DNA of 64,000 nt from Candidatus Spongiisociaceae bacterium (GCA_965219685.1 CBDCOH010000002.1:3040001-3104000), one strand, 5' to 3'; positions 7,631-55,693 are shown, counted from the stretch's first letter. Numbers and translations are program-made. Notes: a model not told the origin generated them from the letters alone.

Positions 7631-8056
7631 GCCGGGGGGGTGTCCCTGTCTTGTTGTCAAGCCGCTTTGGGCAGTTTCTCGGGTTGGCGGGGTTGGTAGG
7701 GCGTTTGGGTCTTGAGCATGTGATGGCGATCGAAACCGGGGCGGTTCACACAGGGTGGTGATGCTCCTATGACGCTCCTATATTGTGCAAGTCGGTTGTC
7801 GGGTGTCGATCCATTGTTGGTATCGGGTGGCGAGGTGGTGGTTGTGGTAGAGGCCCCGCTCGAGTCGCGATAGGAGGGTGGGTTGGGTATCGAGGTGGTG
7901 GGCGGCCTGGGTGAGGGTGATCCGGGCTTGGGTTCGACGGTTGCGTAGGTGGGTACCGTCCGGTGTTGGGTGGGGATTGGTCAGCAGTCGGTAGATCTCT
8001 CGGGCGATGTGCCGCTTGAGGCAGCGGATGATCTCTTTTCGTTTCTTTCCCTCGGC

Positions 8057-10002
8057 CCCGAGTTTGGCGGGTGTTTTGTGTTTTGCCTGGTCAGGGGGGA
8101 TTTGGGGTTGGGGTGTTTCCACTACATTGGCGGTGTGGGGGCTGGTGAGGGGGTTTAGGTGATGGTGGCTTTGTCCCAGGTGCGGGTATCTGCTCCGATG
8201 GCGGTGAGGGTTCGGGTTTGTAGGGGGCTGCGGCGGGTGGTGAGATGGATTCGGCGGCCGCTGGTGGTGAGTTGGTGGCGGCGGACACGGTTGAGGTCGC
8301 GCAGGGCTCGGGCGGCGGTGAGGTGCTGGTCTGCGAGGTCGGGGTCACGAACGTCGGCTGCTGCGAGAGCTTGGCTGATGAGGGTCTCGATTAGAGCGGC
8401 GTAGACACAGACCGCGACGTGGCCGCGGACTCGTTGTTCGGTCCAGTGTCTTATGGGGCGGAGCCGTAGGAAGTCTTTGAGGACCCGGAAGCGGGTTTCG
8501 ACTGCTTGCAGTTGGCGGTAGTAGTCCACGACTTGGGCGGTGGGGGCCTGGGTGGGTGTGAGGCTGGTAGCTAGCACGTAGCGGCCAGCGAGGAGCTCTT
8601 CGTATACGTGGGCGTCTTCGTTGTAGTGGTAGAGAAACCGTCCAGGTTCGATCTCGACGTCGAAGAGCCGCCCAGCCCCAACAGTGGCGAGGATACGCTG
8701 CGCGGCTGCCCCGATCTTGGCGGGGTCCTTCAGCCGGCCGGCACGGACGCGGAGCTCCAGCGCCCGCAGTTCGGTTTCGGCGGCGGCGACGATCTGGCCT
8801 GTGCGGGCGGTGTCTCGGCGGGCGCGGGCGTCGGATTCGACCACAACCGCCCGGGTGCCGTCCTCGAGGGTGATATCGGCGGCGCGGCAGCCGCGCTGGG
8901 GGAGGTCGACCCAGACGGTGTCGTCATCAAGAGCGCCAAGGGCTTGTTTGCTGATACGGTCACGACGCAGCTTTGTGGCCAATAGGTGGTCGAACCCGGC
9001 TTCGGCGACCGCCTCCACGTTGGCAGCTGACATCAGGCCCCGGTCGGCGACTACACAGATCCGGCCCACCGCGAACCTCGCCGCTAAGTCGCCCAACACG
9101 GCGGCCAGGGTGGTGGCGTCGCTGGTGTTCCCCGAGAACACATGATGGGCGATCGGGATCCCGTCGGAGGTGCATAGGAGGCCGATCACTATCTGGGGAC
9201 GATCAGCACGATGGTCCCGCGAATACCCGAACGCCCGGGAGGGGAACCGTCCAGAGGACCGTGTCGAACCCTCGAAATATGTGGAAGTCAGGTCGTAGCA
9301 AACCAGCCGCAGGTCCAGGTTCGTCAAGTCGCACAACCGGGCATACAGATGCGTCTCCGTTTGGTCTTTGGAGGCGGCGACCGCGTCCAGAGCCCGGTAA
9401 TACTGATCAAGGGACGGAGCCGACCAGCCGTCGGGCATCACCACATCCACCCCAGCCCACTCGGCCAGCCGCCGCTTCGAGCACGGCGCCACCAGGCGGT
9501 TTGCCACCATCGCGAACACCGCATGCTCCAGAGCCTTCGCGCCCCGCCTCGCGCCGACCTGAGCGAACCACTCCCCGAGGCCCAGCCGCTGCCACACCGA
9601 CCACACCGCCGCTACCGCCCCCACCGCAGGCGCCCCCTCAGCTGCCAACCCGCCGACATCGACACGTTCCCGCACCAGATGACGCTCCAGGGCGGCGACG
9701 ATGCGTTCCAGCTGACCGGACTCGCGCAAAGCGGTCACCTCCCCCAGCCGCAGAAGGGTCCGGTGACCGACCTTCGACCCGTGGCGGAAAGACTCCACCA
9801 AAGACAAATACTCGTACACCTTGTCGCCCCTGCGACGGCGGGTCGTCTTCACGAACATACCCAGAACCATACCACTAACAGCCCACCTATCCAACCATAT
9901 GTCGCCCCTACAAATCCCCACCCAAACCGTGCCCTACACCAAGAAACCCCAGGTCAGAGAACCGACCACCCCCACAAAGCCCCCCAACCCGCCAAACTCG
10001 GG
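8057..10002 (-). mobile_element. IS1634-family element
   Basis: 15-bp TIR CCCGAGTTTGGCGGG / CCCGCCAAACTCGGG; 5-bp TSD TCGGC (8052-8056, 10003-10007). Confidence 0.92.
8155..9858 (-). CDS. IS1634-family DDE transposase
   Basis: YLSLVES, YDLTSTYFEG, GYSRDHR, VADRG, VETRFRVLK, LRPIRHW motifs. Confidence 0.92.
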   Translation of the reverse strand: MFVKTTRRRRGDKVYEYLSLVESFRHGSKVGHRTLLRLGEVTALRESGQLERIVAALERHLVRERVDVGGLAAEGAPAVGAVAAVWSVWQRLGLGEWFAQVGARRGAKALEHAVFAMVANRLVAPCSKRRLAEWAGVDVVMPDGWSAPSLDQYYRALDAVAASKDQTETHLYARLCDLTNLDLRLVCYDLTSTYFEGSTRSSGRFPSRAFGYSRDHRADRPQIVIGLLCTSDGIPIAHHVFSGNTSDATTLAAVLGDLAARFAVGRICVVADRGLMSAANVEAVAEAGFDHLLATKLRRDRISKQALGALDDDTVWVDLPQRGCRAADITLEDGTRAVVVESDARARRDTARTGQIVAAAETELRALELRVRAGRLKDPAKIGAAAQRILATVGAGRLFDVEIEPGRFLYHYNEDAHVYEELLAGRYVLATSLTPTQAPTAQVVDYYRQLQAVETRFRVLKDFLRLRPIRHWTEQRVRGHVAVCVYAALIETLISQALAAADVRDPDLADQHLTAARALRDLNRVRRHQLTTSGRRIHLTTRRSPLQTRTLTAIGADTRTWDKATIT

Positions 10003-11039
10003 TCGGCCTTGCGTCGGGTGACGTAGGCTTTCGTGGCGGGGTCGGTACGCATCCGGTTGGTGGCGATCCGCCATAGCGCGTTGTTGGCTTGGCGGTTGCC
10101 GCCCTGGTTGAGCCGGTGGCGGATGGTCTGTCCGGATGATGCGGGGACGGGGCTGGTGCCGCAGAGGGCAGCGAAGGCTGCCTCGGTGCTCATGCGTTGG
10201 GGGTTGTCGCCCGCGGCTATAAGCAGAGCTGCTGCTGTGTCAGGTCCGACCCCACGAGCTGCCAGAAGCGCCGGGTTTGCCTGGGTGCAGAGACGGCGGA
10301 TCTCCGTGTCGAGGTCGGCGATCTCGGCAGTCAGCGACTGGTATCTGCGGGCCAGGTGCCGCAGGGCACGTTTCGCGTGGGTGGTGGTGGTGTGGTCTGT
10401 GCCGGGTCGGAAAGCGGCGCAGACCCGCACCCGGGCTTTGAGATTCTTGCCTCGGAGCTGGTTCTTTACCGACTCTGGGGCTGTTACCACCAGGGCGTGG
10501 ATCTGGTTAGCGGCCTGCGTGCGGGCTTTGGTGGCGGATCGGCGTACCACCCGCAGCATCCTGATCGACTCCACAGGCCCATCGGCGGTCTTAGGGCGGG
10601 CTGTCGCTTCGCCGTTAAGAGCAGCCCGAGCGGCGGCTTCGGCATCGGTGGAATCGGTCTTGCCCCGGCGGCGGCGTAGCTGGCGGTTGGGACGATTCAC
10701 CTCCACCACCTCGATGCCGACCTCGGTGAGGTGACGGGCCAACCCTGCCCCGTAGCTACCCGTTCCTTCCACCCCGACCCGGATCAGGCAGCCCTGCGAT
10801 CCCATCCAGGCGACCAACCCCCGATACCCGACACCATCCGCCGCGAACGACTCAGACCCCAGCAGCCGGCCTGCGTTATCAACCACCGCCCCAACATGGA
10901 GATCCCGATGCGTGTCCACTCCGCCGACCACAACCCCCTCGGTTCGAACCTTCTCTGCCATGATGCCCTCCCTCCGTGGGCCGCTTAGAATCCAACCCCC
11001 TGGCCCGGGCAGAGCGGCGGACAGAACACTCTGTGAGTA

Positions 11040-11240
11040 TCGGGTGGGTCTCGTTGAGGTTGCCAGGATTGGCGTCAGCGGCGGGGTCGTGACCCGAGAA
11101 CACTCTGACCTCTGTGTCTTTACCGTGATGCGTCCGACACCGCCGCTGCGCCGCCTGGGCGTTCCGTTGCTGGCCTGATCAGAAGCTTGTCCACCGTCCG
11201 GGGTGTGACCCATCACAGTCCTGCCGTCACGGTCTGCGCC
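11040..11240 (+). ncRNA. Predicted bridge RNA of IS110 element B
   Basis: AGAACACTC (11097-11105) equals the left flank. ACCGTGAT (11122-11129) is the reverse complement of the right flank with 1 mismatch. AGAAGC and TCACAG match the element's own ends. Confidence 0.75.
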
Positions 11241-11287
11241 TTTAGGAGGCGATAGCCCAGTTCGCACAAGAAAGAGAGCGTCTTCTT

Positions 11288-12361
11288 ATGTTGGCCACGA
11301 TGGTAGAGCACGTGATCGGAATCGATCCTGACCGGGACCGGGTCACCGCGTCGGTGGTGGACACTGCCACCACCGGAGAGCAGGCATCTGGGGTGTTTGG
11401 CGCCACCCGGGTGGGTTACGACCGTCTGCTGAAATGGGCAGGCACCCACACCCGGGTAGGTGACCGGGTGTGGTCTGTGGAAGGCACCGGCAGCTATGGA
11501 GCTGGCGTGGCCGGCTACCTTTCTGCCCGTGGTGAGTGGGTGGTGGAGTTCGGGGATCCCACCCCGACCCGCGACGGCGCCAAGACCGACGCCCTCGACG
11601 CACGGCGGGCCGCCCGCCAGGTCCTAGGCCGTGGTCGGCTGCCAGCTCCCCGCGCTCGGGGAAACCGCGAAGCGCTGCGAGTGTTGGAAACCACCCGCCG
11701 AGGAGCCCAAACAGCCAGGGTGGCGGCGATCAACGAGTTGAAAGCCCTGGTAGTAACCGCACCGGTTGGTCTGCGGGACCAACTCGGGGGCCTCACCACC
11801 GCTGGCCTGGTCGCCAAGTGCCACAGATTCCGGCTCCGAGGCGGGACCCTCACCGAGCACACCGCCACCAAGACAGCCATGCGATCTGTCGCCCGACGTA
11901 TCAAGACTCTCACCACCGAGATAGCCGAACTAACCGCGCTCATCGCCGAACTCGTCGAAACAGTCGCTCCCCACCTGGTTGACCAGCCCGGAGTCGGACC
12001 CATCACCGCCGCTCAGATCTATGTCGCCTGGTCACACCGGGGCCGCTTCCGTAACGAAGCAGCCTTCGCCCGCCTCGCCGGCGTAGCACCACTCGAGGCG
12101 TCCTCCGGACAAAACAGCCGCCACCGGCTCAACCGCCACGGCGACCGAACCCTCAACCAAGCCCTCCACACCATCGTCATCACCCGCACCCGCACCTGCC
12201 CCAAGACCCAGGCCTACATCGCTAAACGAACCGCCGAAGGCAAAACCCCCCGAGAAGCCCGACGCTGCCTCAAACGCTACATCGCCCGCCACCTCTACCG
12301 GCTCCTAGAGAACCCACCCAACCACAACACCCATACAGGACCCCCCGCCGGCAGCGGCTAA
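11288..12361 (+). CDS. IS110 bridge recombinase (intact)
   Basis: GIDPD, EGTGSYG, AKTDALDA, SSG, GDRTLN, RCLKRYIAR. Confidence 0.93.
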   Translation: MLATMVEHVIGIDPDRDRVTASVVDTATTGEQASGVFGATRVGYDRLLKWAGTHTRVGDRVWSVEGTGSYGAGVAGYLSARGEWVVEFGDPTPTRDGAKTDALDARRAARQVLGRGRLPAPRARGNREALRVLETTRRGAQTARVAAINELKALVVTAPVGLRDQLGGLTTAGLVAKCHRFRLRGGTLTEHTATKTAMRSVARRIKTLTTEIAELTALIAELVETVAPHLVDQPGVGPITAAQIYVAWSHRGRFRNEAAFARLAGVAPLEASSGQNSRHRLNRHGDRTLNQALHTIVITRTRTCPKTQAYIAKRTAEGKTPREARRCLKRYIARHLYRLLENPPNHNTHTGPPAGSG

Positions 12362-12410
12362 CCGAACCTCTCCCCACCCCCAACACCGGATTTGCACAAC
12401 ATAGAAGCAT

Positions 12411-12580
12411 CAAGGTGGTGGAGAACGGACAAAGCTCCTATTAGGTCACATCCGCTCCCCGGGCCTAGGGACCTCCCCCAAGGCCGGGAACAGGCCGACA
12501 GGTCATAGAAAAGGCACAACGGCCAGTTTGTCAATGGGTCAGACCCGCCCCGGCCAAGGGGGTCCTACCAGTATGAGTGG
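12411..12580 (-). ncRNA. Predicted bridge RNA of element A (5' part; the remainder lies at ~10985-11030)
   Basis: Same scaffold as 17215-17400; guides TTGACAAA and TTCTATGAC match A's junctions. Confidence 0.75.
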
Positions 12581-12583
12581 TTG

Positions 12584-13520
12584 TCAAATCGGCGAAGGGG
12601 CCGCCTCGTGAGTTCGGAGCCACCTCTGGTATCGGGTAGCGAGTTGGTGGTTGTGGTCTCGGCCTAGCTCAAGTGCTGAGATGCAGCTGGGGTGGGTGCT
12701 GAGAGCTCGGGCGGCCTGGGTGACGGTGATGCCGCCTTGTTGGCGTCGGGTGCGTAGCCCGGCGCAGTTCGGGGTTGGGGGCGGGTTGGTCAGGAGCCGG
12801 TAGATCTCTCGGGCGATGTGCCGCTTGAGGCAGCGGATGATCTCCCGCTTCTTCTTGCCCTCGGCCTTGCGTCGTGCCACGTAGGCTTTGGTGGCGGCGT
12901 CGTGGCGCATCCGGGTGGTAGCGATTCGCCAGAGGGCGCTGTTGGCTTGGCGGTTGCCTCCGCGGTTGAGACGATGCCGGATGGTCTGGCCTGATGACGC
13001 CTGGACGGGGCTGGTGCCGCACAGCGCAGCGAAGGACTTCTCCGATTTCATACGTCCGGGGTTGTCGCCGGCGGCGACCAGCAGAGCGGCGGCTGTGTCA
13101 GGGCCGATACCTTTGGCGGCTAGGAGAGCAGGGTTGGCCTTCGCGCAGAGGCGACGGATTTGGGCTTCGAGTTGGGTGATTTCTGTGTCGAGGGCCCGGT
13201 ATCGGCGGGCCAGGCGCCGCAGGGCACGCTTCGCATAGGCGGTGGTGGTGTGGTCTGTGCCGGGTCGGAAAGAGGCGCAGACCCGGACCCGGGCTCCGAT
13301 ATCGAGGTCCTTTAGCCGGCGTTTCACACCCTCAGGAGCGGTAACAGCCAGAGAATGGAGCTGGTTGGCAGCCTGGGTGCGGGCCTTGGTAGCGGACCGG
13401 CGGACCACCATCAGCATCCGTATGCACTCGACCGGACCATCACCAGATTTGGGAACGGCGGTAACTTGGCGGCTGGCAGCCGCCCGGGCTGCCGCCTCGG
13501 CGTCTACGCTGTCCGATCTG
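12584..13520 (-). pseudogene. IS110 element C, 5'-truncated recombinase with XRE-like C-terminus; distal right end displaced to 7760-7771
   Basis: Begins at SDSVDAEAAAR; GGNRQAN, RCLKRHIAR; ends GATTTGACAA, with the missing CATAGGAGCATC at 7771-7760. Confidence 0.85.
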
Positions 13521-13530
13521 ATACCTGTAA

Positions 13531-14265
13531 CTATGGCCCGGGTACGCCCGGTCCATAGTGAGCGTCATGGGCCTCGACCGCCGCGGCCTCCGCTGAGAGC
13601 AGCTGCCAGACCCTCCTGAGGACAACGCCGACTAACAGCGGTACGGCCAGGGCGACAAGGGATAACGGCACCAAGCCGCCGGCAATGGCCACGTCGACGC
13701 CCGGAGGCGGGTCCGCCCTGGCTACGACACCGAGCAGGGCGCAGGCCGACATCGCTGCGACCAGCAAAAGCAGGAGGGCGACCGCTTCGTCGATCATCTC
13801 CCGGATGTGGTCGGGGAGGGGTGAGCGGCCTAGAGGCACAAGCACGCCGATTCCTCCGAGGGCGGCCACCGCCCCGGCCACACCGACGGGTACGGCCACG
13901 TTGAGGCGGTCCAAGACCCCGGGGAGGCGCCCTATCTGGACGCTCGCCGAGTTGAGCGCTGCGATGAACCCCTCGTGGACGCCAGCGAGGCCGGACACGG
14001 CGGCGGCGCCCACCATCAGTAGGAGGCCACATGCCCACAAGAGCCCCAGCCACGACCACCAGCCGCCGGGTTGCTCCTGGCGGTACCGCCAGCCGAGTGT
14101 CAGAGCGGTACTCGTTGCGGCCCCGCTCAGCACGAGCCACACCGCCCACCACACTCCTGACGTCTCGGTACCCGCGTACACGAGCACCGCAGCGATCACC
14201 GCAAGCACAGGCGCAAGGTACGGGCGGAACCTCCGGTAGATGCCCCTGACGCGGTCGTAGTCCAT
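13531..14265 (-). CDS. Multi-pass membrane protein, unknown function
   Basis: About six hydrophobic segments after MDYDRVRG. Confidence 0.6.
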   Translation of the reverse strand: MDYDRVRGIYRRFRPYLAPVLAVIAAVLVYAGTETSGVWWAVWLVLSGAATSTALTLGWRYRQEQPGGWWSWLGLLWACGLLLMVGAAAVSGLAGVHEGFIAALNSASVQIGRLPGVLDRLNVAVPVGVAGAVAALGGIGVLVPLGRSPLPDHIREMIDEAVALLLLLVAAMSACALLGVVARADPPPGVDVAIAGGLVPLSLVALAVPLLVGVVLRRVWQLLSAEAAAVEAHDAHYGPGVPGP

Positions 14266-15055: not shown

Positions 15056-15427
15056 GTTGCCATTCCGCCGGATGCTAGTAAACCGTCCCGAAGCGAGGGT
15101 TGGTGGCTCATCGGATTTCCGAAGTGCTGGGTTGGTGCGGTGCCTCGACATCAACATGGTTCTCCGCCGCCACCCCCCACAGGTCACCAACCCGAGGCTC
15201 CATTGAACCGCCGACTTGTATGTCGCTGAAGGTCCCCGTGTCTAGCGGAGAGCGTGCCCACCTAATCGGGTCAACCTCATATAGCATCCGTAACTACAGC
15301 ACAAGACGGTGCCACGCGCATGATCAGAACGCCCCACCGCCGCTGACCGCCTGCCGCGCGATGTTCCATCCCGCGGCCACCAGGACCGGAACTCAAAGGC
15401 CACCATCGGGGAACCGCACACCCGTAG

Positions 15428-17182: not shown

Positions 17183-17224
17183 GAGGTGATCTCCTCTCCT
17201 GAGGCTTCGCGAAAACACTCATAC

Positions 17225-17405
17225 TTGTAGGGTCCTCCTCGGCTGGGGGCCGGGTCTGACCCACGCGAAAACTGGCGTTTGGTGCCTTTCCCACGATCTG
17301 TCGACCTGGCCCTAGCCGGGAGCCCTGAACCGGGGAGCGGGGTGACCTTATAGGAGCTTCGACTTCTCCACCTTGAGTGTTCTGTCCGCCGCTCTGTCCG
17401 GCTCA
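17225..17405 (+). ncRNA. Predicted bridge RNA of element F
   Basis: Four 8-nt guides match the left flank, right flank, right end and left end, in IS621-like order. Confidence 0.85.
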
Positions 17406-17446
17406 GGGGGACTTGGAATTGTAGGCAGTTGGCGGAAGGTGGGCAC

Positions 17447-18682
17447 ATGGAAGAGCAAGATCGAGCCGATGGCATGGTTGTGGTCGGTGGGGTGGACACG
17501 CATCGGGATACCCATGTTGGGGCGGTGGTCGATAGCGCGGGTCGGCTGTTGGGATCGGCCCAGTTCCGGGCTGATACGGCCGGCTATGGGCAACTTGTCG
17601 CCTGGATGGAGTCGTGGGGTCGGATCAGCCGGGTCGGGGTGGAAGGGACTGGCAGCTACGGTGCCGGCTTGGCCCGTCACCTCACCGGCGCCGGTATCGA
17701 GGTGGTGGAGGTGAACCGTCCCAACCGCCAGCTACGCCGCCGGCGGGGCAAGGACGACCACACCGACGCCGAGGCAGCAGCTCGGGCAGCTCTGAATGGT
17801 GAAGCAACCGCGGTGCCCAAGTCCGGCGACGGGCCGGTCGAGTGGATACGGATGCTGACAGTGACGCGCCGCTCCGCCGTCAAGGCCCGCACCCAGGCCG
17901 CCAACCAACTCCATGCCTTGGTGGTTGGTGCCCCAGAGCCGATAAAAGACCAGGTAAAGGGCATGAAACTCAAAGGCCTGGTTAAGACTTGTGCCCGGTT
18001 CCGACCCAGCGGAGAGTCCTCCCTCAGCTACGCTAAGCAGGCTCTCCGCCGCCTGGCCCGCCGCTACCAGGTCCTCGACACCGAGATCGCAGAACTCGAT
18101 GTCGAGATCCGCCGCCTCTGCGCCAAGGCCAACCCGGCGCTCCTAGCCGCCGACGGCGTCGGCCCCGACACAGTCGCCAAGCTCCTAGTCGCAGCCGGCG
18201 ACAACCCCCAGCGCATGAAATCGGAACGATCCTTCGCTGCGCTGTGCGGTGTCAGCCCTGTGCAGGCGTCATCTGGGCGAAGGGTTCGGCATCGTCTCAG
18301 CCGAGGCGGCAACCGCCAAGCAAACAGCGCCCTGTGGCGGATCGCTACCAACCGGATGCGGACCGACCCCGCCACCCAAGAATACGTCGCCAGACGAGAG
18401 GCTGAGGGCAAAAAGCGAACCGAGATCATCCGCTGCCTCAAGCGGCACATCGCCCGAGAAACCTACCGGCTCCTCACCAACCCGCCACCAACCCCGAACT
18501 GCGCCCGGCTACGCAGCCGACGCCAACAACGCGGAATCACCGTCACCGAGGCCGCCCGAACTCTCGGAACCTACCCCAGCCGCATCTCAGCACTCGAGCT
18601 AGGCCGAGACCACAACCACCAACTCGCTACCCGATACCAGAGGTGGCTCCGAACCCACGAACCGGCCCCATCGCCGATTTGA
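17447..18682 (+). CDS. IS110 bridge recombinase with C-terminal XRE-like HTH
   Basis: GGVDTH, EGTGSYG, KDDHTDA, SSG, GGNRQAN; C-terminus GITVTEAARTLGTYPSRISALELG. Confidence 0.93.
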   Translation: MEEQDRADGMVVVGGVDTHRDTHVGAVVDSAGRLLGSAQFRADTAGYGQLVAWMESWGRISRVGVEGTGSYGAGLARHLTGAGIEVVEVNRPNRQLRRRRGKDDHTDAEAAARAALNGEATAVPKSGDGPVEWIRMLTVTRRSAVKARTQAANQLHALVVGAPEPIKDQVKGMKLKGLVKTCARFRPSGESSLSYAKQALRRLARRYQVLDTEIAELDVEIRRLCAKANPALLAADGVGPDTVAKLLVAAGDNPQRMKSERSFAALCGVSPVQASSGRRVRHRLSRGGNRQANSALWRIATNRMRTDPATQEYVARREAEGKKRTEIIRCLKRHIARETYRLLTNPPPTPNCARLRSRRQQRGITVTEAARTLGTYPSRISALELGRDHNHQLATRYQRWLRTHEPAPSPI

Positions 18683-18731
18683 CAAACATAGGAGCATCGT
18701 GGGGTAGGGCTGCTGTTGTCGGTGCGGGGGC

Positions 18732-18890
18732 TCATGTTACGAGAACTCCTCGGGCTGCGAAGTTGTTGGTGTTGGTGAAGCCGTGAGCGACTCGGCGTAG
18801 GACCTGGAGCAAGTTGTTGATCCCTTCGATGGGTCCGTTGGTTGCTGGTCTGCTGCGGTGGTAGGCGAGGATTCCTTCTCCCCATGCACC
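18732..18890 (-). pseudogene. ISL3 transposase C-terminal fragment
   Basis: TNGPIEGINNL...RRVAHGFTN. Confidence 0.8.
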
Positions 18891-26700: not shown

Positions 26701-27139
26701 ACCGTTTCGACTTCGCCGGCTACCACCAAGTACTGGTCGTCGCACCCAGTTCACACTTCGGGGGCGGCGTCGCCGTTGACGGAGTCCACACCGATGAGGG
26801 ACCGATCGGCCGAGCGGCCGTGATCAACTCTTACAGACATGACAAGGACACAGACCCCAACGACTGGAGTTATGCTGCAGCTCACGAAATCGTCCACGGA
26901 CTCGGACTGCTAGACCTGTATCCCTTTGACCAGGCGCGGCACCGGCAACCAGCTCCCCCCAGAGACCGCAAATGGGTACCCTCCAGGTTCGGTCTCATGA
27001 ACCTATGGGCCTACTTCCTCACAGACGAAAGAGACCCACGCCTCGCGCTTACTTGGCATTGGCCCGACGGCAACACCACCACCGATCTGAACCGCCCCGG
27101 TTACCCCGGAGACTCGATTAGTTGGGAGATAATGGAGTC

Positions 27140-28380
<1,241 letters not shown>

Positions 28381-29297
28381 AACACTCTCCGGCAAACCCG
28401 GGGCGGTTCAATCACAACCTGGGTTCAGTGCTGGCTGAGGAAATGCTGGCGTGGAGTCGCTGGCAACTCGGTTGGCTCGAACCCGACCAAGTCCTGTGTG
28501 TCACCGACAAACACACAACCGTAACCCTGACTCCTGTTGCCGACCCCGGCCGGGGCACAGCAATGGTCGCAATCCCCCTATCCAGGTCCGAAGTCATCGT
28601 CATCGAGAGCCGACACAGGATCGGCTATGACAAGGGCCAAGAATACCAAGCCCCGAACGGGGCGCAGACCACCTTTCCAGCCCTCCTCACCGAGGGCGTC
28701 CTCGTATACACAGTCGACGCCACCCTCGGATCAGGGAACCTACCTGTGAAAGTGGCTGGCGACTCGGGAAACGGACAAGTAGACGACTACCCCATCCTCA
28801 CCCGCGGCCAGAGTGTCACCACCCACGGCTACACCATCACCGTGATCTCTACAACACCCAACACCACGATCACAATCACACAAGAGTGAATCCTCCTGAG
28901 CCGCGCTGAACATCCGTGGGTTAGGTAGGGGCCCTTCGCGTGTGTGGGCGTTGGGCCCCCCTTCCTGTTGTGTTGGTGGGTCCCGGCAGCCGTTTTGTTG
29001 TGGTGGTGGCTGGTGGGGGTCGAGTAGCTGTTTGAGGTTGACCCGCTTTGGTGGACACTACTCTCCGGCAGACCCGGGGCGGTTCACCCCTTCCAAACCC
29101 GAGTCATCACCCGAATCCCCGACTAGCCCCCATCCCTCCTAGCCGACCGAACCTACCCCCCAAACCGTCCCACAACACCCCGACCCGGAGGGCCGGAGAA
29201 CCCGCCGGCACAGACACCCTACGAACGCGACTACCCCCTCGTCAGATACCCACCTCAGCAACCCATAACGGGGTAGGTCGATCGTCGGGGTGGCAGC

Positions 29298-41997: not shown

Positions 41998-43513
41998 TAG
42001 ACACCCCAGGCGGCAAATGTCAAGCTGCGGCTTGGTCGGCAAATGTCAAGCTGCGGCTTGGTCGAGGGTGGTGCGGTGGGCCCAGGTAGTGTGTTCGTCA
42101 TAGGTGGTTCGGTGTTTGAGACAGCCGTGGAGGATACCCACGAGCCGGTTGGCGAGGGCTCGGAGTGCTTGGTGGTGGAGGTCGCCGGCGGCTCGGCGTT
42201 GGTCGTAGAACGCTCGGGCGCCTGGACTTCGGGTTAGGGAACAGAATGCCCATTGGTCGAGGGCGTCGTAGAGGCGCCGGTTGCGGACGTGGCGGGCCAT
42301 AACGGTGTGTTTGCGGCCTGACGCGATGGTGATGGGCGACGTGCCGGCATAGTTCCTGGGTGACTTGGCGCTGGTGTAGCGTTGGGGGTCGTCCCCGGAC
42401 TCTCTGCGAGCGCCCGGGCGCCGAGCACGGTACCGAGTCCTGGCTGGGAGTGGTAGATGACGGCGTCCGGGTGCTCCTCAAAGCGGGTTTCCAGGGTTGC
42501 TTCGAGGTCTGTGAACTGGCGGTTGGTTTCCGCAATGACGCTCACCAGCGCCCCCACAGTGGCCCCGTGTGCGTCGGTGACCCGCCCAGGAGCGGCGAGT
42601 TGGCGGGTGCGGAGCCCTTTTTGTATTCGACGGGCAGCCGTATCGAGGGTGCGGCGTCGGCCGGCGGCGCGGAGCGCGGCCCTAATCTGGGTGACGGTCA
42701 GGCGGGCACCCCGGGTGGGGGTGGTTGCCCGACCCAGCACGGCGACGGTGTCGCGATTAGCCCGCTCATCGAAGGTTTCGAGGGCTGCGGGGTAGTACTC
42801 GCGCAGGGCGTTGCGGATCTGGTTGGTGTGACGCACCCGAGCCCAGATCAGGTTCTGATGCGTCCTAGCCAGGACTTTGATCCCTTCGGCTTCGGGGCTA
42901 TCACCGGCAACCCGACGATGGTTGTGCCGGTCGGTGCGTACTAGGTCGGCTAACACCTTGGCGTCGCCACGGTCTGATTTGGCCCCACCCTGGCTATGAC
43001 GGGTCCCGGTAACGCGAAACTGCCATCGGGTTGATCGCATACACCTGATAACCCGCCCCGACCAGAGCACCGACCCACAAACCACGGTCACACTCGATGC
43101 CCACCACCACCTCGGACGGATCCGATACGTGCTCGCCGATCATCTCATGCAACTGGGCCACACCTGCCAGACCTTCTGGTAGCCGCCGAGCGGCCAACGG
43201 AACTCCGGACTCGTCCATGAGACACACATCATGATGTCCCTCAGCCCAGTCATCACCCACAAAGATCATCCTTGCCTCCTCCATAGACGGATCACTCTCG
43301 AGCTGTGGAGGAAACGCCTGGCGGCGACCTAGCAGATCAGTGCTCTTCGCGGCACGCCACCCCATGAGCGCTACAAGCAGCCCTCACTCACCGGCCGGAG
43401 CACGATCTATCAACAGGAATCAGAGTTCCAGGAGCTTGGAGTACTCACCGGCCAGCCAGCTCAACCACCACACCCTCCCAGATGAACCAGAAGAAGTGGT
43501 GGACCCCCATTAG
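41998..43513 (-). mobile_element. IS110 element D1 (frameshifted recombinase 42046-43269)
   Basis: GDDWAE.HHD, AKSDRGDA, ASG, RNRRL motifs; CTA core at both ends; inverted twin of D2. Confidence 0.9.
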
Positions 43514-44842
43514 GAGCTTTGAGTTCTCCACCACGGTGAGTGTTCTGTCCGCCGCCCCTCAGGTTGGATCGAGAGAAGCCTACTAAGGAGGGAAGTCGCA
43601 TGGTAGACAGCCAGGTCGAAGTGTGTGGTGGGGTGGACACCCATCGGGATACCCATGTTGTGGCGGTGGTCGATACCGCTGGCCGGGTGTTGGGAACCGC
43701 CCCGTTCCCCGCTGATAGGGTCGGATATGAGCAGATGACCAGGTGGTTACGAACACATGGGCAGCTGCTCCGGGTTGGCGTGGAGGGAACCGGCAGCTAC
43801 GGTGCCGGCCTCGCCCGATATCTGACGGAAGCGGGCATAGCCGTGGTTGAGGTGAACCGCCCCAACCGCCAACTACGCCGCCAGAGGGGCGGCAAGTCTG
43901 ACAGCATCGACGCCGAGGCGGCAGCTCGGGCGGCCGCCTCGGGTCAAGCTACCGCAGTTCCCAAATCCGGTGTGGGCCCCGTTGAGTGCATTCGGATGCT
44001 GTTGGTGGCCCGCCGCTCCGCGGTTAAGGCACGCACCCAGGCCGCTAACCAGATCCATGCACTGGTCATAACAGCCCCTGAACACCTAAACGCCAGCTCA
44101 GAGGCCTCAAGATCAAGGCCCGGGTCAGGGTCTGTGCCCGATGGCGTCCCGGTGGGGACCAGACCACGACCGCGTATGCGAAGATGGCTCTGCGCCACCT
44201 CTCCCGCCGATACCAGACCCTCGATGCAGAAATCGCGCAACTCGACGCTGAGATCCGTCGCCTCTGCGCCCAGGCGAACCCTGCTCTCCTAGCCGCCAAA
44301 GGCGTAGGCCCTGACACAGCAGCCGCTCTCCTGGTCGCAGCCGGCGACAACCCCGAACGGATGAAATCAGAGAGGTCCTTCGCGGCGTTATCTGGCACCA
44401 GCCCCGTCCAGGCATCATCCGGCCAAACGGTCCGCAATCGCCTCAACCGGGGCGGCAACCGCAAAGCCAACAACGCGCTATGGCGAATTGCCACCAACCG
44501 GATGCGCACCGACGCCGCCACCAAAGCCTACGTGGCACGACGCAAGGCCGAGGGCAAGAAGAGAAAAGAGATCATCCGCTGCCTCAAGCGGCACATAGCA
44601 CGAGAAATCTACCGGCTCCTGACCAACCCGCCACCAACCCCGAACTGCGCCCGCCTACGGCACCAGCGACAACAAGCTGGCATCACTATCACCCGAGCCG
44701 CCCAACAACTCCGAACCCACCCCAGCCGCATCTCAGTACTCGAACACGGCCGGGACCACAACCACCATCTCGCCACCCGATACCAGAACTGGCTGCACAC
44801 CCACCGACGGCCGACTCCATCGATTTGACAAACATAGGAGCA
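43514..44842 (+). mobile_element. IS110 element E body (recombinase 43600-44828, frameshift ~44090, XRE-like C-terminus)
   Basis: IS110 motifs; right end TTGACAAACATAGGAGCA; left end cut at the donor loop by D. Confidence 0.85.
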
Positions 44843-44854
44843 TCGATGAGCGCC

Positions 44855-48161: not shown

Positions 48162-49652
48162 CTAATGGGGGTCCACCACTTCTTCTGGTTCATCTGGGAG
48201 GGTGTGGTGGTTGAGCTGGCTGGCCGGTGAGTACTCCAAGCTCCTGGAACTCTGATTCCTGTTGATAGATCGTGCTCCGGCCGGTGAGTGAGGGCTGCTT
48301 GTAGCGCTCATGGGGTGGCGTGCCGCGAAGAGCACTGATCTGCTAGGTCGCCGCCAGGCGTTTCCTCCACAGCTCGAGAGTGATCCGTCTATGGAGGAGG
48401 CAAGGATGATCTTTGTGGGTGATGACTGGGCTGAGGGACATCATGATGTGTGTCTCATGGACGAGTCCGGAGTTCCGTTGGCCGCTCGGCGGCTACCAGA
48501 AGGTCTGGCAGGTGTGGCCCAGTTGCATGAGATGATCGGCGAGCACGTATCGGATCCGTCCGAGGTGGTGGTGGGCATCGAGTGTGACCGTGGTTTGTGG
48601 GTCGGTGCTCTGGTCGGGGCGGGTTATCAGGTGTATGCGATCAACCCGATGGCAGTTTCGCGTTACCGGGACCCGTCATAGCCAGGGTGGGGCCAAATCA
48701 GACCGTGGCGACGCCAAGGTGTTAGCCGACCTAGTACGCACCGACCGGCACAACCATCGTCGGGTTGCCGGTGATAGCCCCGAAGCCGAAGGGATCAAAG
48801 TCCTGGCTAGGACGCATCAGAACCTGATCTGGGCTCGGGTGCGTCACACCAACCAGATCCGCAACGCCCTGCGCGAGTACTACCCCGCAGCCCTCGAAAC
48901 CTTCGATGAGCGGGCTAATCGCGACACCGTCGCCGTGCTGGGTCGGGCAACCACCCCCACCCGGGGTGCCCGCCTGACCGTCACCCAGATTAGGGCCGCG
49001 CTCCGCGCCGCCGGCCGACGCCGCACCCTCGATACGGCTGCCCGTCGAATACAAAAAGGGCTCCGCACCCGCCAACTCGCCGCTCCTGGGCGGGTCACCG
49101 ACGCACACGGGGCCACTGTGGGGGCGCTGGTGAGCGTCATTGCGGAAACCAACCGCCAGTTCACAGACCTCGAAGCAACCCTGGAAACCCGCTTTGAGGA
49201 GCACCCGGACGCCGTCATCTACCACTCCCAGCCAGGACTCGGTACCGTGCTCGGCGCCCGGGCGCTCGCAGAGAGTCCGGGGACGACCCCCAACGCTACA
49301 CCAGCGCCAAGTCACCCAGGAACTATGCCGGCACGTCGCCCATCACCATCGCGTCAGGCCGCAAACACACCGTTATGGCCCGCCACGTCCGCAACCGGCG
49401 CCTCTACGACGCCCTCGACCAATGGGCATTCTGTTCCCTAACCCGAAGTCCAGGCGCCCGAGCGTTCTACGACCAACGCCGAGCCGCCGGCGACCTCCAC
49501 CACCAAGCACTCCGAGCCCTCGCCAACCGGCTCGTGGGTATCCTCCACGGCTGTCTCAAACACCGAACCACCTATGACGAACACACTACCTGGGCCCACC
49601 GCACCACCCTCGACCAAGCCGCAGCTTGACATTTGCCCGCCTGGGGTGTCTA
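48162..49652 (+). mobile_element. IS110 element D2 (frameshifted recombinase 48406-49629)
   Basis: Near-identical to D1, including both frameshifts; CTA core. Confidence 0.9.
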
Positions 49653-49868
49653 TCAGGTCACATCCGCTTCGAAGCCAAAGCTCCGCCATCAGGTCACATC
49701 CGCTTCGAAGCCAAAGCTCCGCCCCTGACCGGCGGGACAGGCCGACAGATCCCCAGCAAGGCAACACACGCGCCGGATTTCGATTGGGTCAGACCCGCCC
49801 CCCAGTCCAGGGGACCACCACTCATCCTCGCAGCAGTCCCCCTCAAAAGGGCACCTTCAGTATGAGTG
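49653..49868 (-). ncRNA. Displaced IS110 left end with target-binding loop (probably element E); carries a 36-bp tandem duplication at 49652-49723
   Basis: CACTCATACT...GGTCTGACCCA...GATCTGTCGGCC...GTGACC scaffold. Confidence 0.75.
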
Positions 49869-49888
49869 AATTTCGCTGATCGCCAACA

Positions 49889-50227
49889 AGAGACCGTGCG
49901 GGGCATCTACGACATCGACAGCCCAGCCGTCGCTCTCCGCTACACCCTCCAGCTCGCCGACGACCTCCAAGACGAATCCTGCCCACCGGAGATCCACAAG
50001 CTGGGCCGAACCATCGCCCGCTGGACGCCGCAGATCGCCAACTGGCACATCTCCAAGGTGACCAACGGACCCACCGAAGCGCTCAACAACCTGATCAAGA
50101 GGATCAAGCGAGCAGCGTTCGGGTTCCGGAACTTCGCGAACTACCGAATCCGGGCTCTCCTCTACGCCGGGAAGCCCAACTGGGATCTACTCCCATCGGT
50201 CACTCCCCACTGAAACGCGATGAGCCC
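49889..50227 (+). pseudogene. ISL3 C-terminal fragment and right end, preceded by an IS21 terminus (49869-49888)
   Basis: TNGPTEALNNLIKRIKRAAFGFRNF; end CCCACTGAAACGCGATGAGCC. Confidence 0.85.
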
Positions 50228-50229
50228 TA

Positions 50230-50958: not shown

Positions 50959-52134
50959 CTAACTCGGTCGTGGTATTGCCGCGTGGAGATAGGCACCGTC
51001 CTCCGATGTCCTTGTTGCCAACTCGAGATATCTCTTTGAGTTCGGGAATGATCTGATTGAGACGGTGGGTCCACACGGACGGAATGTCGACGTATTGTCC
51101 TTATGAGATATCGCAACGAGGCCGTCGCTTGTTTCGATAATGAGTGAAGACGTGGTTTCACAGGCCGTGAGAGGCTTGCCTTTGTAACGGCCGATTCGAT
51201 GAACTCTCTTCGCGATTCGGCGGCCACCGATACTCCGATACAGACGTGCAGCGAACACACGGCCCTCTAGTAGGGCGATCAGACGCTGCCGAGAGAACAG
51301 GATGTAGTCGAGTGTCTCATTGAGGAAGGGCGAACCGGAACCGTCACTCGACGTGCTCACGCTTGCTGGCTCCACTCCAACTAGTACCTTGTCTGGTACA
51401 CTCCTGGCTGAAGAATTGGTGTCTTCCCGTTGGCCTTCTAGATAGGAAAACTCATTACGTGAGGGGAAATTGAAGAGCCCTCCACTTCCAAACGTGGCTC
51501 GCTCTGAAGCAACCGCTACTTGTCGCTCCTTAGCGCGTTGGCCTGAGCGATAGCCAAAGTCGTCGAACAGCATACGAAGCCCAGCGTCGCCACAAGAAGC
51601 TGCTATCGATCCAAGGCTCGCTGCTGCGGAGTAGCACGAGTGCCTGATCCGGGATTCGAAGGTCACAGTGTCTTTTCGCGTATGCCATGTAGGGATGTGG
51701 GGTGTGTGTGATCGTATCGTCTGGGGTTCTGTGAGTTCGAATAGGCCCTCGTCTGTACCACAATAGATTCGATCTGCGTAGATCAGTATGTCGAGCAAGC
51801 TGTTGGCTTCTAGCCGGGTCTCGAAGACCCAATATGGGGTATTGTCGAGATCGATCACCAAGTCTAAGTCGGAGTCACGTTCACTAAGTCTTGTCGCGCT
51901 CCGATATTGACCAGCCGCGGCTCCAAGTCTGTTTGAGTGGAAGAGTTGGAAGCAAGCTCCAGCCGCGGCCTGTGGGTCATCCGATAGTTCCGTTCTAATT
52001 AGTGACTCGATACCTGACACAGGAAACAAATATAGCCTACTGTCGTAACTCCAAGCATGGATCGTGGTCCGGTAAACGAACATGTCCTCGATAGGTGGAC
52101 CCTCTAATCGTACAGAGATCCAACGGTCTGTCAT
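50959..52134 (-). CDS. Hypothetical 391-aa beta-rich protein
   Basis: Long clean ORF in a lower-GC block; ATGA overlap with the upstream gene. Confidence 0.75.
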   Translation of the reverse strand: MTDRWISVRLEGPPIEDMFVYRTTIHAWSYDSRLYLFPVSGIESLIRTELSDDPQAAAGACFQLFHSNRLGAAAGQYRSATRLSERDSDLDLVIDLDNTPYWVFETRLEANSLLDILIYADRIYCGTDEGLFELTEPQTIRSHTPHIPTWHTRKDTVTFESRIRHSCYSAAASLGSIAASCGDAGLRMLFDDFGYRSGQRAKERQVAVASERATFGSGGLFNFPSRNEFSYLEGQREDTNSSARSVPDKVLVGVEPASVSTSSDGSGSPFLNETLDYILFSRQRLIALLEGRVFAARLYRSIGGRRIAKRVHRIGRYKGKPLTACETTSSLIIETSDGLVAISHKDNTSTFRPCGPTVSIRSFPNSKRYLELATRTSEDGAYLHAAIPRPS

Positions 52135-52571: not shown

Positions 52572-53131
52572 TCGTAGACGGCTGCCACCCGGACTCTCAA
52601 GGGTGTCGTGTTGGGGATCATAGGCACAGTCGATGATCGAATCCGGCGGCCACGCGCTTCGCCCCTTGCAGAGTGCCCGCGGGCTACGGCGTTCGGGGCG
52701 TCGCGTAGGACTTCCGGGGTTGCTTACGTTCCTACCACTCCTGACCCTGCTCGAGCGATACCTCTGGCCTAGCTCAAGCAGGGTTCGATCTGCCCCACGC
52801 GATCCTGCTTGCGGGTCCTGCTGACGGCAATAAGGACCTGAACCCCGAACTGTTCCCCCCGGCCCAGGACCAGCTGATCGCCGTCACACTCGGCGACGAG
52901 TACCCCAACGGGATAACCGTCAGCGGCTACCTGTCTTCCCGAGTGGGCATCTACCAGCCGAACAACAGCTCACGCTGCACACAGCCAGGGCACACGACCG
53001 GGGCGCCACATGCGCCGACATCGCCGCCACCGTCGGCTACCCGACCGAGATAGTCCGCCAACTGGTCGACCAACACCACTGGGACGACTGCCGGAACTGC
53101 GGCCAACAGAACAACAAGAGGCTTCGCGAAA

Positions 53132-54615
53132 ACACTCATACTTGTAGGGTCCTCCTCGGCTGGGGGCCGGGTCTGACCCACGCGAAAACTGGCGTTTGGT
53201 GCCTTTCCACGATCTGTCGACCTGGCCCTAGCCGGGAGCCCTGGACCGGGGAGCGGGGTGACCTAATAGGAGCCTTCGACTTCTCCACCATGAGTGTTCT
53301 GTCCGCCGCTCTGCCCGGCTCAGGGAACTTGGAATTGTAGGCAGCCGACGGAAGGCGGGCACATGGAAGAGCAAGATCGAGCCGATGGCATGGTTGTGGT
53401 CGGTGGGGTGGACACGCATCGGGATACCCATTGTTGGGGCCGCGGTCGATACCACGGGTCGCCTGTTGGGATCGGCCCAGTTCCAGGCTGATACGGCTGG
53501 CTATGGGCAACTGGTTGCCTGGATGGAGTCGTGGGGTCGGGTCAGCCGGGTCGGGGTGGAAGGGACTGGCAGCTACGGTGCCGGCTTGGCCCGTCACCTC
53601 ACCGGCGCCGGTATCGAGGTGGTGGAAGTGATGCGTCCCAACCGCCAGTTACGCCGCCGGAGAGGCAAGGACGACCACACCGACGCCGAAGCAGCAGCTC
53701 GAGCAGCTCTGAATGGCGAAGCAACCGCGGTGCCCAAGTCCGGTGACGGACCGGTCGAGTGGATACGGATGCTGACCGTAGTTCGCCGCTCCGCCGTCAA
53801 GGCCCGCACCCAGGCCGCCAACCAACTCCATGCCCTGGTGGTTGGTGCCCCAGAACCGGTAAAAGACCAGCTAAAGGACATGAAACTCAAAGGCCTGGTT
53901 AAGACTTGTGCCCGCTTTTCGACCTAGCGGAGAGTCCTCCCTCAGCTACACGAAGCAGGCCCTCCGCTGCCTAGCCCGCCGCTACCAGGTCCTCGACACC
54001 GAGATCGCAGAGCTCGATGTCGAGATCCGCCGTCTCTGCGCCAAGGCCAACCCGGCGCTCCTAGCCGCCAAAGGTGTCGGTCCCGACACAGCCGCCAAGC
54101 TGCTGGTCGCAGCCGGCGACAACCCCCAACGCATGAAATCGGAACGGTCCTTCGCTGCGCTGTGCGGCACCAGCCCCGTCCCCGCATCATCAGGACGCAC
54201 AGTCCGGCATCGTCTCAACCGGGGCGGCAACCGCCAAGCCAACAGCGCCCTGTGGCGGATCGCTACCACCCGGATGCGTACCGACGCCGCCACCAAAGAA
54301 TACGTGACCAGACGCGAGGCTGAAGGCAAGAAGCGAACCGAGATCATCCGCTGCCTCAAGCGGCACATCACCCGAGAGATCTACCGGCTCCTCACCAACC
54401 CACCCCCAACCCCGAACTGCCCCCAACTGCGCAACCGGCGCCAACACCAGGGAATCACCGTCACCCGAGGCCGCCCGAACTTTCGGAACCTACCCCAGCC
54501 GCATCTCAGCACTCGAGCTCGGCCGAGACCACAACCACCAACTCGCTACCCGATACCAGAGGTGGCTCCGAACTCCCGAACCCGGCCCGTCGCCGATTTG
54601 ATAAACATAGGAGCA
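53132..54615 (+). mobile_element. IS110 element G, frameshifted sibling of F
   Basis: Same ends and near-identical guides; inserted in GAGGCTTCGCGAAA|TCGTGGG; frameshifts ~53430, ~53920, ~54470. Confidence 0.9.
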
Positions 54616-54680
54616 TCGTGGGATTTGGGCTGTTCTGGTGGTCGGTGTTGAGGAGCCCTCAACAGGATGAGTGCCGTCTA

Positions 54681-54818
54681 TGAGGTCACATCCGCTCCGG
54701 GCTGGCTGCCCGTACCCCCCGACCGGTGCCCGGCCGACAGATCCGGGGTAAAAGGCACCACAGCCAGTTTCCCGGTGGGTCAGACCGGACCCCGGTCGAG
54801 GTCCCTTAAGTATGAGTG
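54681..54818 (-). ncRNA. Orphan IS110 left end H (target-binding loop only)
   Basis: Same scaffold; guides ACCGGGAAA and CCCCGGAT; truncated at the start of the donor loop. Confidence 0.7.
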
Positions 54819-55693
54819 TTACCCCTGAGACTCAGGTGATTCGGCGACGCGGGTGGAGCTTCGCGCCGGTGGCGGCTGAGGCAATTTGTTGTGTCGGTGC
54901 CTATGGGGGTGTAGGGGGTGAGTACGGCGTTGGCGCCTGCGATGATGGACGCGCAGTCGGGGTGGGTGGGGTCCCCGGTCAGGTTGATCATTCGTATGAG
55001 CCACCAGGCGTACCAGCGGACTTCGATCTCTCCGCCCATGTCGCGTATGTCTTGGGCTGAGGACACTCCGAGGTCGGTTAGGGCCTGGTTGAGTTCGGCT
55101 TCGGTGTGGGGTCGGAAGGTGTCGTCGGTTCGGGGAGGGTATTGTCCGGGTCCGTGGTGGGGTTCCCAGCCCGGGTTTTCTAGGGCGAGGGCTATGAGTT
55201 CGTCGTGGGCTGTGAGGTAGTGGAAGGTTGAGCCCCACCAGCTGTACCAGTTGGGGTTGTCGATGAGTTCGTACTTGAGGGTGTCGTTGCATGCGGTGGC
55301 TTCGAGACCGGCTCTGCTGGCGGGCATCCGGTCGTCCCATGCGGGGTGGCTGGATCGGCGCAGGTAGTAGTCCCATTCCATTTGGGCCAGGGTGGTGCTG
55401 GTGGTCGGCTGGGTGGTCGGGGTTGTGGTGGTGGGGGTCTGTGCAGAGCGGGTGTCTTCTGGTTCGGGGGGTGGAGCGAGGGTCGTGTCGGTGACCGGCA
55501 CGCCTCGTGTTGAGCCGTCCGTGCCGGCGGGTGCTGTGCTGTCGGTAACCGCGAGGCTGGTCGCGGTGGTTGCGTTGGTGGTGCCCACTCGTTGGTTCTG
55601 GGCGCCCATCGCGGAGACCACTGTCACCGCAACGACACCGACCAGGCCCGCAGCAACCAGCAGTATCCGGACGGTTGGGCCGGTTAACCTCAT
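54806..55693 (-). CDS. Secreted protein with Pro/Thr-rich linker, C-terminus probably truncated by IS debris
   Basis: N-terminal hydrophobic segment and PT/TTT linker; the ORF ends inside IS ends. Confidence 0.7.
   Translation of the reverse strand: MRLTGPTVRILLVAAGLVGVVAVTVVSAMGAQNQRVGTTNATTATSLAVTDSTAPAGTDGSTRGVPVTDTTLAPPPEPEDTRSAQTPTTTTPTTQPTTSTTLAQMEWDYYLRRSSHPAWDDRMPASRAGLEATACNDTLKYELIDNPNWYSWWGSTFHYLTAHDELIALALENPGWEPHHGPGQYPPRTDDTFRPHTEAELNQALTDLGVSSAQDIRDMGGEIEVRWYAWWLIRMINLTGDPTHPDCASIIAGANAVLTPYTPIGTDTTNCLSRHRREAPPASPNHLSLRGNTHT

Follow-up and report, generated by a model that had tools for sequence, protein, structure and literature searches.

Guide sets of IS110-group elements in a Candidatus Spongiisociaceae genome match the ends and guide-RNA genes of other mobile elements

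The 64,000-nt stretch of DNA analyzed here (the window; G000:C2:3040001-3104000) comes from the genome of a Candidatus Spongiisociaceae bacterium (GCA_965219685.1, contig CBDCOH010000002.1) and contains many insertion sequences (ISs) of the IS110 group, which encode a recombinase and a two-loop bridge RNA. Our results confirm that the guide sets of the IS110 elements in the window match the ends or the guide-RNA genes of other mobile elements, and we think it likely that the region is a nest formed by successive RNA-guided, site-specific IS110-group insertions into other ISs. In a tblastn search with three IS110 proteins of the window, IS110-like coding sequence was found at seven places, and a divergent type (D) occurs twice more; genome-wide there are 17 IS110 loci, 11 of which fall within about 130 kb (C2:3,020,695-3,149,389). 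Element ends were set by aligning copies from different contexts and by comparison with uninterrupted sites. Coordinates are listed in Table 1 and count from the first nucleotide of the window unless a contig is named.

The window holds three IS110-group scaffolds, each composed of a 5' two-loop bridge RNA and a DEDD/Transposase_20 recombinase: a main scaffold (E2, E4, E5, E7, E9, a fragment referred to as type 5, and copies elsewhere), the E3 type, and the D type (D1 and D2). PF01548 (DEDD_Tnp_IS110) and PF02371 (Transposase_20) were matched in E5 (E values 7.5e-24 and 9.9e-21), in E3 (2.3e-11 and 5.8e-19), and in an intact D-type copy outside the window (1e-36 and 6.6e-10), and both domains are also present in E2. 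The E5 protein aligns distantly to the transposases of solved structures from IS621 and ISCro4 (E 1.4e-10 to IS621), and the IS621 alignment shows agreement at the D, E, D, D, and S residues of GIDT, EATG, DxxD, and ESG; we presume that these residues have the roles ascribed to them in IS621-like motifs. The closest relatives of the E3 protein are from Acidimicrobiia and Microthrixaceae metagenome-assembled genomes (MAGs). Main-scaffold recombinases also carry a C-terminal HTH_3/HTH_31-like tail (17429-18682, amino acids 359-394; 12584-13417) that is not covered by the IS621 structure chain.

In all three scaffolds, the recombinase gene is preceded by ~215–255 nt of non-coding DNA, while only ~16 nt follow the stop codon in E5 and ~50 nt in E3. 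A guide-RNA region upstream of the gene, together with a short 3' non-coding end, argues for the layout of the IS110 group and not for that of the IS1111 group, in which subterminal inverted repeats accompany an RNA downstream of the gene. Consensus folding with RNAalifold gave two modules, each a stem with an internal loop and a small hairpin, for ten main-scaffold sequences (40 pairs, 6 with compensatory changes), and likewise two modules for eight E3-type sequences (60 pairs, 5 with compensatory changes). Rfam gave no match to a bridge-RNA family at gathering scores over the window, and none at E up to 1 over 17150-17450. The donor guides match the ends of their own element, ATAGGAGC corresponding to the right end and TGAGTG to the complement of the left end. 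The elements are without terminal inverted repeats, have a short core at both junctions (CTA in the D type, C in the two others), and, judged on R (see below), their uninterrupted sites are scarless. Across a circle junction, the TTGACA of the right end would be separated by 17 nt from the CATACT of the left end, a spacing that fits the junction promoter described for the family in PMC11208160. As a separate observation, the Rfam small-RNA family Ms_AS-4 (63.9 bits) was matched antisense to the 3' part of the D-type recombinase gene at 42364-42447 (+) and 49228-49311 (-); this family may be only a conserved piece of IS110 transposase genes.

The link between guides and insertion sites follows a code in which the left target guide repeats the 8–9 nt to the left of the insertion point, core included, and the right target guide is the reverse complement of the 5–6 nt to its right. 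Main-scaffold guides and flanks were extracted with anchored patterns, which may miss copies with diverged anchors, from G000 and from loci of the related genomes G001, G002, G007, and G021; collapsing identical flank pairs left 34 insertions with 14 guide sets in five genomes. Left guides matched their own flanks at 8.09 of 9 positions on average, as against 4.63 for the flanks of other guide sets (n = 426). The corresponding means for right guides were 5.48 of 6 (n = 27) and 2.20 of 6 (n = 341), and a match of at least 5/6 was reached by 25 of the 27 own pairs and by a single one of the 341 cross pairs. With one representative for each of the nine guide sets for which both flanks were available, 125 of 135 positions match, a total reached in 1 of 50,000 permutations. 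In the E3 type, the left guide co-varies with the left flank over eight loci, and the D type, with at least five guide sets, follows the same code. Together with the uninterrupted sites, the independent same-site insertions, and the recurrence in other genomes described below, the flank–guide matches bear out the proposal in the initial annotation, which was made from sequence alone, that the bridge RNAs are real, that one scaffold carries different guides, and that ends or guide-RNA genes of other mobile elements are the targets.

These numbers also bear on the idea that the region is a chance pile-up in a recombination-tolerant graveyard, or a misassembly of repeats, in which guide matches are coincidental. 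The crowding of 11 of the 17 loci into ~130 kb, the many broken copies, and the tendency of short-read contigs to break at repeat borders would be in keeping with this idea; we nevertheless consider it very improbable in view of the cross-set controls and permutations, of identical junctions in other assemblies and in five host elements that differ in sequence, and of the left E2/E3 junction, which is bridged by contigs from two of four sequencing runs.

The intact element E5 and the frameshifted E9 occupy the same point in two copies of a repeat, R, both splitting it at GAGGCTTCGCGAAAA / CGTGGG, and uninterrupted copies are present at C2:3147620 and 105049. The first loop of E5 contains CGCGAAAAC and CCCACG as target guides, and its second loop contains ATAGGAGC, which equals the right end ..ATAGGAGCAT, and TGAGTGTT, the complement of the left end. 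E5 and E9 have identical left guides, and one nucleotide is deleted from the right-guide region of E9. R had been left as an anonymous repeat, and we can now correct it to part of an ISL3-family IS, comprising its 3' end with the terminal repeat, as a 48-amino-acid piece at 18744-18887(-) matches PF01610 (E 1.6e-11) and a fuller copy does so at 4.6e-35. In G002, 11 main-scaffold copies lie in the terminal repeat of another ISL3-family element, identified by the C-terminal part of a transposase that their common left flank encodes. A further guide set, CCTCGTAAC / CATGAC, has as its target the stop-codon region of the ISL3 transposase, ~45 nt inside R; an intact copy with this set is present in G002 (L013/L041) and a left-end fragment in G000 (C2:101200-101330).

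At the left of the nest (7761-13516), IS110 elements lie within IS110 elements. The left end of E2 adjoins ..TTTGACAA of E4 at 12581 and its right end adjoins the last 11 nt of E4, so that the target of E2 is the right end of another IS110. The E2 guides are TTGACAAAC and CATAG, and its left neighbor is the E4 right-end sequence ..GATTTGACAA (from 12581 upward). Because E2 is interrupted twice, by E3 and by a DDE_Tnp_1 IS with three further copies at 88.65% identity, the apparent fragment at 7772-8056 is E2's own 3' end. E3, in turn, lies antisense within the DNA for the donor-binding loop of E2, in the part in which the left end is mirrored. The left flank ..CAGAACACTC is repeated by the E3 left guide GAGAACACTC, and the E3 right guide fits at 5/6 positions. 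A second E3 copy (C2:3130xxx) is identical at 1374 of 1378 positions (99.7%), whereas its host matches E2 at only 752 of 997 positions in the body and 129 of 160 in the 5' region (75–81%), so that these are two insertions at the same site and not one duplicated block. A separate observation concerns G000:C2:3576876-3576962, where the tail ..CATAGAAGCAT, as usually seen at the right end of E3-type elements, comes immediately after an E2-type right end; this hints that main-scaffold elements also enter E3-type ends.

A second site in the donor-binding loop is occupied by D-type elements. The left flank of D1 and the right flank of D2 are the two halves of the E7 donor loop, split at ..ATAG/GAGC, and these flanks fit the D1/D2 guides CAAGCTCCT and CTATCAAC. 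The most economical history is a single insertion and a subsequent inversion between two D copies in inverted orientation. Tandem duplications are present at both elements: one of 36 nt in the left half of the E7 donor loop (49653-49724), at the D2 junction, and one of 26 nt at the right end of D1 (~42012-42063), absent from D2; they are reminiscent of repeated non-coding units that a 2026 preprint describes at the borders of IS110 elements. E7 itself was taken to target an IS21 terminus. The 21 nt at its left flank match the type of terminus found at 58446, in line with its left guide, and this terminus adjoins an IstB remnant (58559-58762; PF01695, E 4.5e-23, 83 bits). No IS21 genes were found next to three other copies of the terminus, nor was a complete IS21 with it found in the genome. 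Its IS21 identity is plausible, with one IstB remnant beside a like terminus as the basis.

The type-5 fragment and its four relatives carry the guides CCGGGAAAC / CCGGGG and split the reverse complement of an IS3 terminal repeat such as that of the element at 27088. One of these copies, g3020, splits the left repeat of a complete IS3 at C2:3022162-3023473.

The same nesting recurs in G002, G007, G013, G001, and a public MAG. An E3-type left end adjoins the GAGTG..TGTCC of a main-scaffold 5' region in G013, in G007 (at a contig end), and at the MAG locus L001, where both flanks can be read; at L004, an E3-type/main-scaffold junction is present on one side. At L001, the left guide of the inserted element (GACCACTC) and the host segment share the same A-to-C difference from G000. 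Of the D type, 21 copies in G000, G001, G002, and G007 were compared. Besides the D1/D2 pair, a donor-loop case in G000, both flanks are in main-scaffold donor loops in L080-L082 (G002), of which L081 and L082, with identical 20-nt flanks, may be one event that was duplicated, and both are in an IS110 right end in gD3132 and L084. In L089 and L095, for which only the left flank was scored, that flank is an IS110 right end. At L092 (G001:C180), an IS110 right end plus an IS3 repeat form the left flank and a donor loop forms the right flank, which suggests that the body of the host, lying between two D target sites, was lost by deletion. Six copies (L083, L085-L088, and L090; G002) have the heptamer microsatellite CTGACAC/CTGGCAC on both sides and guides set to this repeat, and five have other target sites. 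Separately, a 22-nt footprint of a D-type left end is present in a donor loop at L036 (G001).

The D-type copies also help to decide whether donor-loop insertions might be collateral, i.e., off-target or half-match events of elements whose real targets are the physical ends of main-scaffold elements, which the loop mirrors. The donor-loop segments have 7–8 nt in common with the true ends, D-type copies are found at both the right end and the loop, and half-match insertion has been reported for IS621 in a preprint (10.64898/2026.08.31.748434). However, D-type guides fit their flanks in both classes alike, and the right guides differ between them: those of the right-end targeters read CTATGTTC and those of the loop targeters (D1/D2, L080-L082) CTATCA.., the latter fitting the loop flank (CTA-TCAGG/TCAAG) and not the right-end flank (CTA-TGTTT). 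Because the difference between the guides mirrors that between the two sites, the loop is more than a collateral hit. In addition, the right guide of E3 fits the left-end context at only ~3/6 by hand comparison, as against the 5/6 for the loop flank given above, and no E3-type copy lies at a true left end among the genomes examined. We therefore regard collateral hits as improbable.

Genome-wide, 17 of 21 scorable insertions are in IS-derived DNA, three are in ordinary DNA, and one, the second D site, is unclear; copies are thus not inserted mostly in non-mobile DNA. The targets named in the initial annotation were recovered for the right end of E4 (E2), both donor-loop sites (E3 at one, D1 and D2 at the other), an IS21-like terminus (the 5' part of E7), the IS3 terminus (type-5 fragment), and R (E5 and E9), which is every target named there; its statement that every guide aims at another mobile element holds within the window and does not extend to the whole genome.

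Several observations weigh against a nest of successive guided insertions. The ordinary-DNA cases are g1190, at a look-alike site ~160 nt upstream of a nadD-like gene, and two intact D copies, gD130 beside a DNA methylase and a hydantoinase-like gene and gD2495 between transketolase-like and hydrolase-like genes. Targeting is not saturating, as perfect E3 sites are still unoccupied in E5 and g1190 and two perfect R sites are empty as well. Only one of the five type-5 copies adjoins a complete IS3, the other four lying in repeat-like sequence with no transposase adjacent. The right flank of E7 (CGATGAGCGCC) fits its right guide at 2/6 and corresponds to an ISL3-repeat-like sequence that another guide set, found in G002, targets; the 5' and 3' parts of E7 could stem from one host or from two. 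The second D1/D2 site (..GAAGAAC-CTA-ACTCTAAC..) matches the guides poorly and could have arisen by inversion between two D copies, by a half-match event, or by gene conversion. The main-scaffold copy L054 (G002:C1:3663054-3665474) fits neither guide (left 5/9, right 2/6) and is a candidate off-target or rearranged insertion. Contigs of four runs from one sample showed no joints, circle junctions, or empty-site forms over 7500-19500. Finally, the source genomes are relatives within one genus, so the insertion events are not fully independent.

Table 1. Features of the IS110 nest and of its target elements in window coordinates (LTG and RTG, left and right target guide; LDG and RDG, left and right donor guide; CDS, coding sequence).
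Feature	Position	Strand	Remarks
Last 11 nt of E4 right end, severed by E2	7761..7771	-	Reads as family right-end tail directly after E2 right end
E2 3' end (main scaffold)	7772..8056	-	tblastn to aa 313-413 of E5 protein; junctions
DDE_Tnp_1 IS within E2, not IS110	8057..10003	-	CDS 8155-9921; PF01609 E 2e-12; inverted ends; 5-bp TCGGC duplication
E2 body, interrupted recombinase gene	10004..11030	-	CDS 9954-11267; Pfam, tblastn
E3, E3-type IS110, intact	11032..12410	+	RNA region 11032-11287, CDS 11288-12361; core C at 11031 and 12411
E2 5' region: target-binding loop and left half of donor loop	12412..12579	-	LTG TTGACAAAC, RTG CATAG
E4, main scaffold, without 5' part	12581..13516	-	PF02371; right end is E2 target
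Outer 15 nt of ISL3 terminal repeat (R), left target half of E5	17201..17215	+	Uninterrupted R: GAGGCTTCGCGAAAA then CGTGGGG..
E5, intact main scaffold	17216..18697	+	LTG 17264-17272, RTG 17290-17295, LDG 17350-17357, RDG 17375-17382, CDS 17429-18682
R: inner terminal repeat and C-terminal end of ISL3-family transposase (remnant)	18698..18887	-	Eight other copies aligned
IS3-family element with unoccupied terminal repeats, reference for type-5 target	27088..28410	+	rve/HTH_21; ALIL pseudoknot
D1, D-type IS110, frameshifted	41998..43513	-	Core CTA at both ends; left end adjoins right half of E7 donor loop
E7 3' part: right half of donor loop, frameshifted recombinase gene, right end	43514..44843	+	
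D2, inverted relative to D1	48162..49652	+	Identical to D1 over 1477 nt; right end adjoins left half of E7 donor loop
E7 5' part: left end, target-binding loop, left half of donor loop	49653..49868	-	LTG ATCGAAATC, RTG CCCCAG
21 nt of IS21-like terminus, left target half of E7	49869..49889	-	Homologues of adjoining ISL3-like DNA diverge here
E9, frameshifted	53133..54616	+	Same point of another R copy; R halves 53118-53132 and 54617-54649
24-nt left-end fragment of a further main-scaffold IS110	54650..54673	-	
Type-5 5' fragment with left end, target-binding loop, and donor loop truncated at ..CATAG	54678..54818	-	LTG CCGGGAAAC, RTG CCGGGG
IS3-terminal-repeat-like left target half of type-5 fragment	54819..54833	-	
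IS21-like terminus with two direct repeats of E7 target motif	58446..58762	-	Adjoins C-terminal end of IstB, 58559-58762
IS110-family frames or fragments	7790-8092, 9957-11267, 11288-12358, 12587-13519, 17429-18679, 43579-44822, 53287-54598		
Divergent-type (D) IS110 frames	42237-43091, 48584-49438		

In our model of the nest, each element would excise to a circle, express its RNA from the junction promoter, and insert where both target guides pair. The guide sets present appear tuned to sequences that are conserved, multicopy, and neutral for the cell. Their targets are terminal repeats, belonging to ISL3, IS3, and IS21-like elements, as well as the right ends of main-scaffold IS110 elements and the DNA encoding the donor-binding loop of the latter. 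Terminal repeats would be constrained by having to bind their transposase, and donor-loop DNA must mirror the ends of its element and is therefore hard to mutate. We suggest that the habit persists because such sites are safe harbors that travel with other mobile DNA. As a side effect, the victim might be disabled if its terminal repeat or donor loop is split, or if the -35 box in its right end is parted from the circle junction. Some flanks may have been scrambled afterwards, when copies recombined by homology, as in the D1/D2 inversion.

A different emphasis would be that the E3 and D lineages have been selected because their insertion destroys the bridge RNA or the right end of a rival IS110, from which the host may gain. 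The insertion points, which lie inside both donor-loop guide segments or between the TTGACA and the tip of the right end, should abolish the function of the host element; the guide sets of right-end and loop targeters differ as their sites do, as if the loop were hit on purpose; and the junction at C2:3576876 suggests reciprocal hits. Set against this, the same scaffolds also target ISL3, IS3, and IS21-like repeats, the heptamer microsatellite, and ordinary intergenic DNA, which fits an opportunistic preference for conserved repeats, and the intact E5 and g1190 have kept their perfect E3 sites. We consider directed antagonism of this kind unlikely, if conceivable. Equally doubtful in our view, if tempting to speculate upon, is an RNA-guided war between IS110 lineages, in which guides are aimed at right-end and donor-loop DNA that cannot drift, the bridge RNA of a rival is permanently disarmed, and guides and ends co-evolve; co-evolution of guides with rival ends is suggested by GAACACTC versus GACCACTC in different genomes.

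Around the nest, a 1654-bp inverted repeat of 99.7% identity (15549-17200 and 56790-58443) brackets ~40 kb; one copy stops exactly at the tip of the ISL3 repeat split by E5 and the other at the IS21-like terminus, and its frames have no Pfam match. Just to the left of the nest, a low-GC stretch (0.54–0.57) contains a gene for an 879-amino-acid NB-ARC/TPR (STAND-type) protein (4507-7146). The frames at 13531-14574, 14274-14999, 16493-17218, 45111-46163, 47142-48152, 50959-52134, and 54806-55693, among others, had no Pfam match at E up to 0.001–0.01. Outside the window, a large repeat-domain protein encoded beside g215 is rich in fn3 domains according to Pfam.

Bridge recombinases are under development as programmable genome-writing tools, and the guide settings that occur in nature are little known. 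The elements described here offer a natural reprogramming series of at least 14 main-scaffold and at least five D-scaffold guide sets, with matched sets of occupied and empty targets, mismatches found in nature, and apparent off-target events, that could be used to derive specificity rules. They also show a three-layer ecology in which DDE transposons are parasitized by IS110 elements that are themselves hit by other IS110 elements at the guide-RNA gene. Selection for disabling rivals, if it proved true, would represent a novel form of conflict among mobile elements, and a war between lineages would amount to an insertion-based natural counterpart of CRISPR-like interference among transposons, with a possible benefit for the host genome.

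The literature already shows that IS110 and IS1111 elements select targets through RNA guides and that related ISs are naturally reprogrammed (PMC11208160 and PMC11187229), and the former paper describes a bridge RNA with target-binding and donor-binding loops for IS621. The elements of the window resemble IS621 as presented there (Durrant et al. 2024, PMC11208160; structures 8wt6-8wt9) in having a recombinase with DEDD and Ser domains and a 5' RNA with two loops, in a left guide of the same sense as the left flank and a right guide complementary to the right flank, and in a short core, the lack of terminal inverted repeats, and -35/-10 boxes that would meet only across the circle junction. 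They differ in that their proteins are only distantly related to IS621, in a core of C or CTA, in the C-terminal HTH_3-like tail of main-scaffold proteins, and in natural targets that are the ends of other ISs and IS110 elements and not REP (repetitive extragenic palindromic) sequences.

Insertion of DEDD-family elements into the terminal repeats of other transposable elements has precedents. IS4321 and IS5075, of the IS1111 group, reportedly enter a fixed point in the terminal repeats of Tn21-family transposons, and IS1383 is said to do so in repeats of IS1384. As IS1111-group members, these have subterminal repeats and a seekRNA on the 3' side, whereas the elements studied here have a 5' RNA and a right non-coding end of ~16 nt. 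Moreover, at least 14 natural guide sets are found here on one scaffold, and two lineages aim at the right end and the bridge-RNA gene of another IS110.

In the full-text literature, we found no description of IS110 guides set to the right end or donor-loop DNA of another IS110, although the 2024 supplementary target tables might list cases. A further parallel is a preprint on expanded IS110 loci (bioRxiv 10.64898/2026.08.14.744561), the accessible part of which reports repeated insertion into occupied loci, tandem duplication of non-coding units, inversions, and no target immunity, all features with likenesses here. The growth described in that part proceeds by insertion and duplication within one family and not by heterologous lineages programmed to the donor loop or right end of another lineage. 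Targeting of IS ends is known and the mechanism is ordinary bridge recombination; it is the ecology of the targets that is the interesting part.

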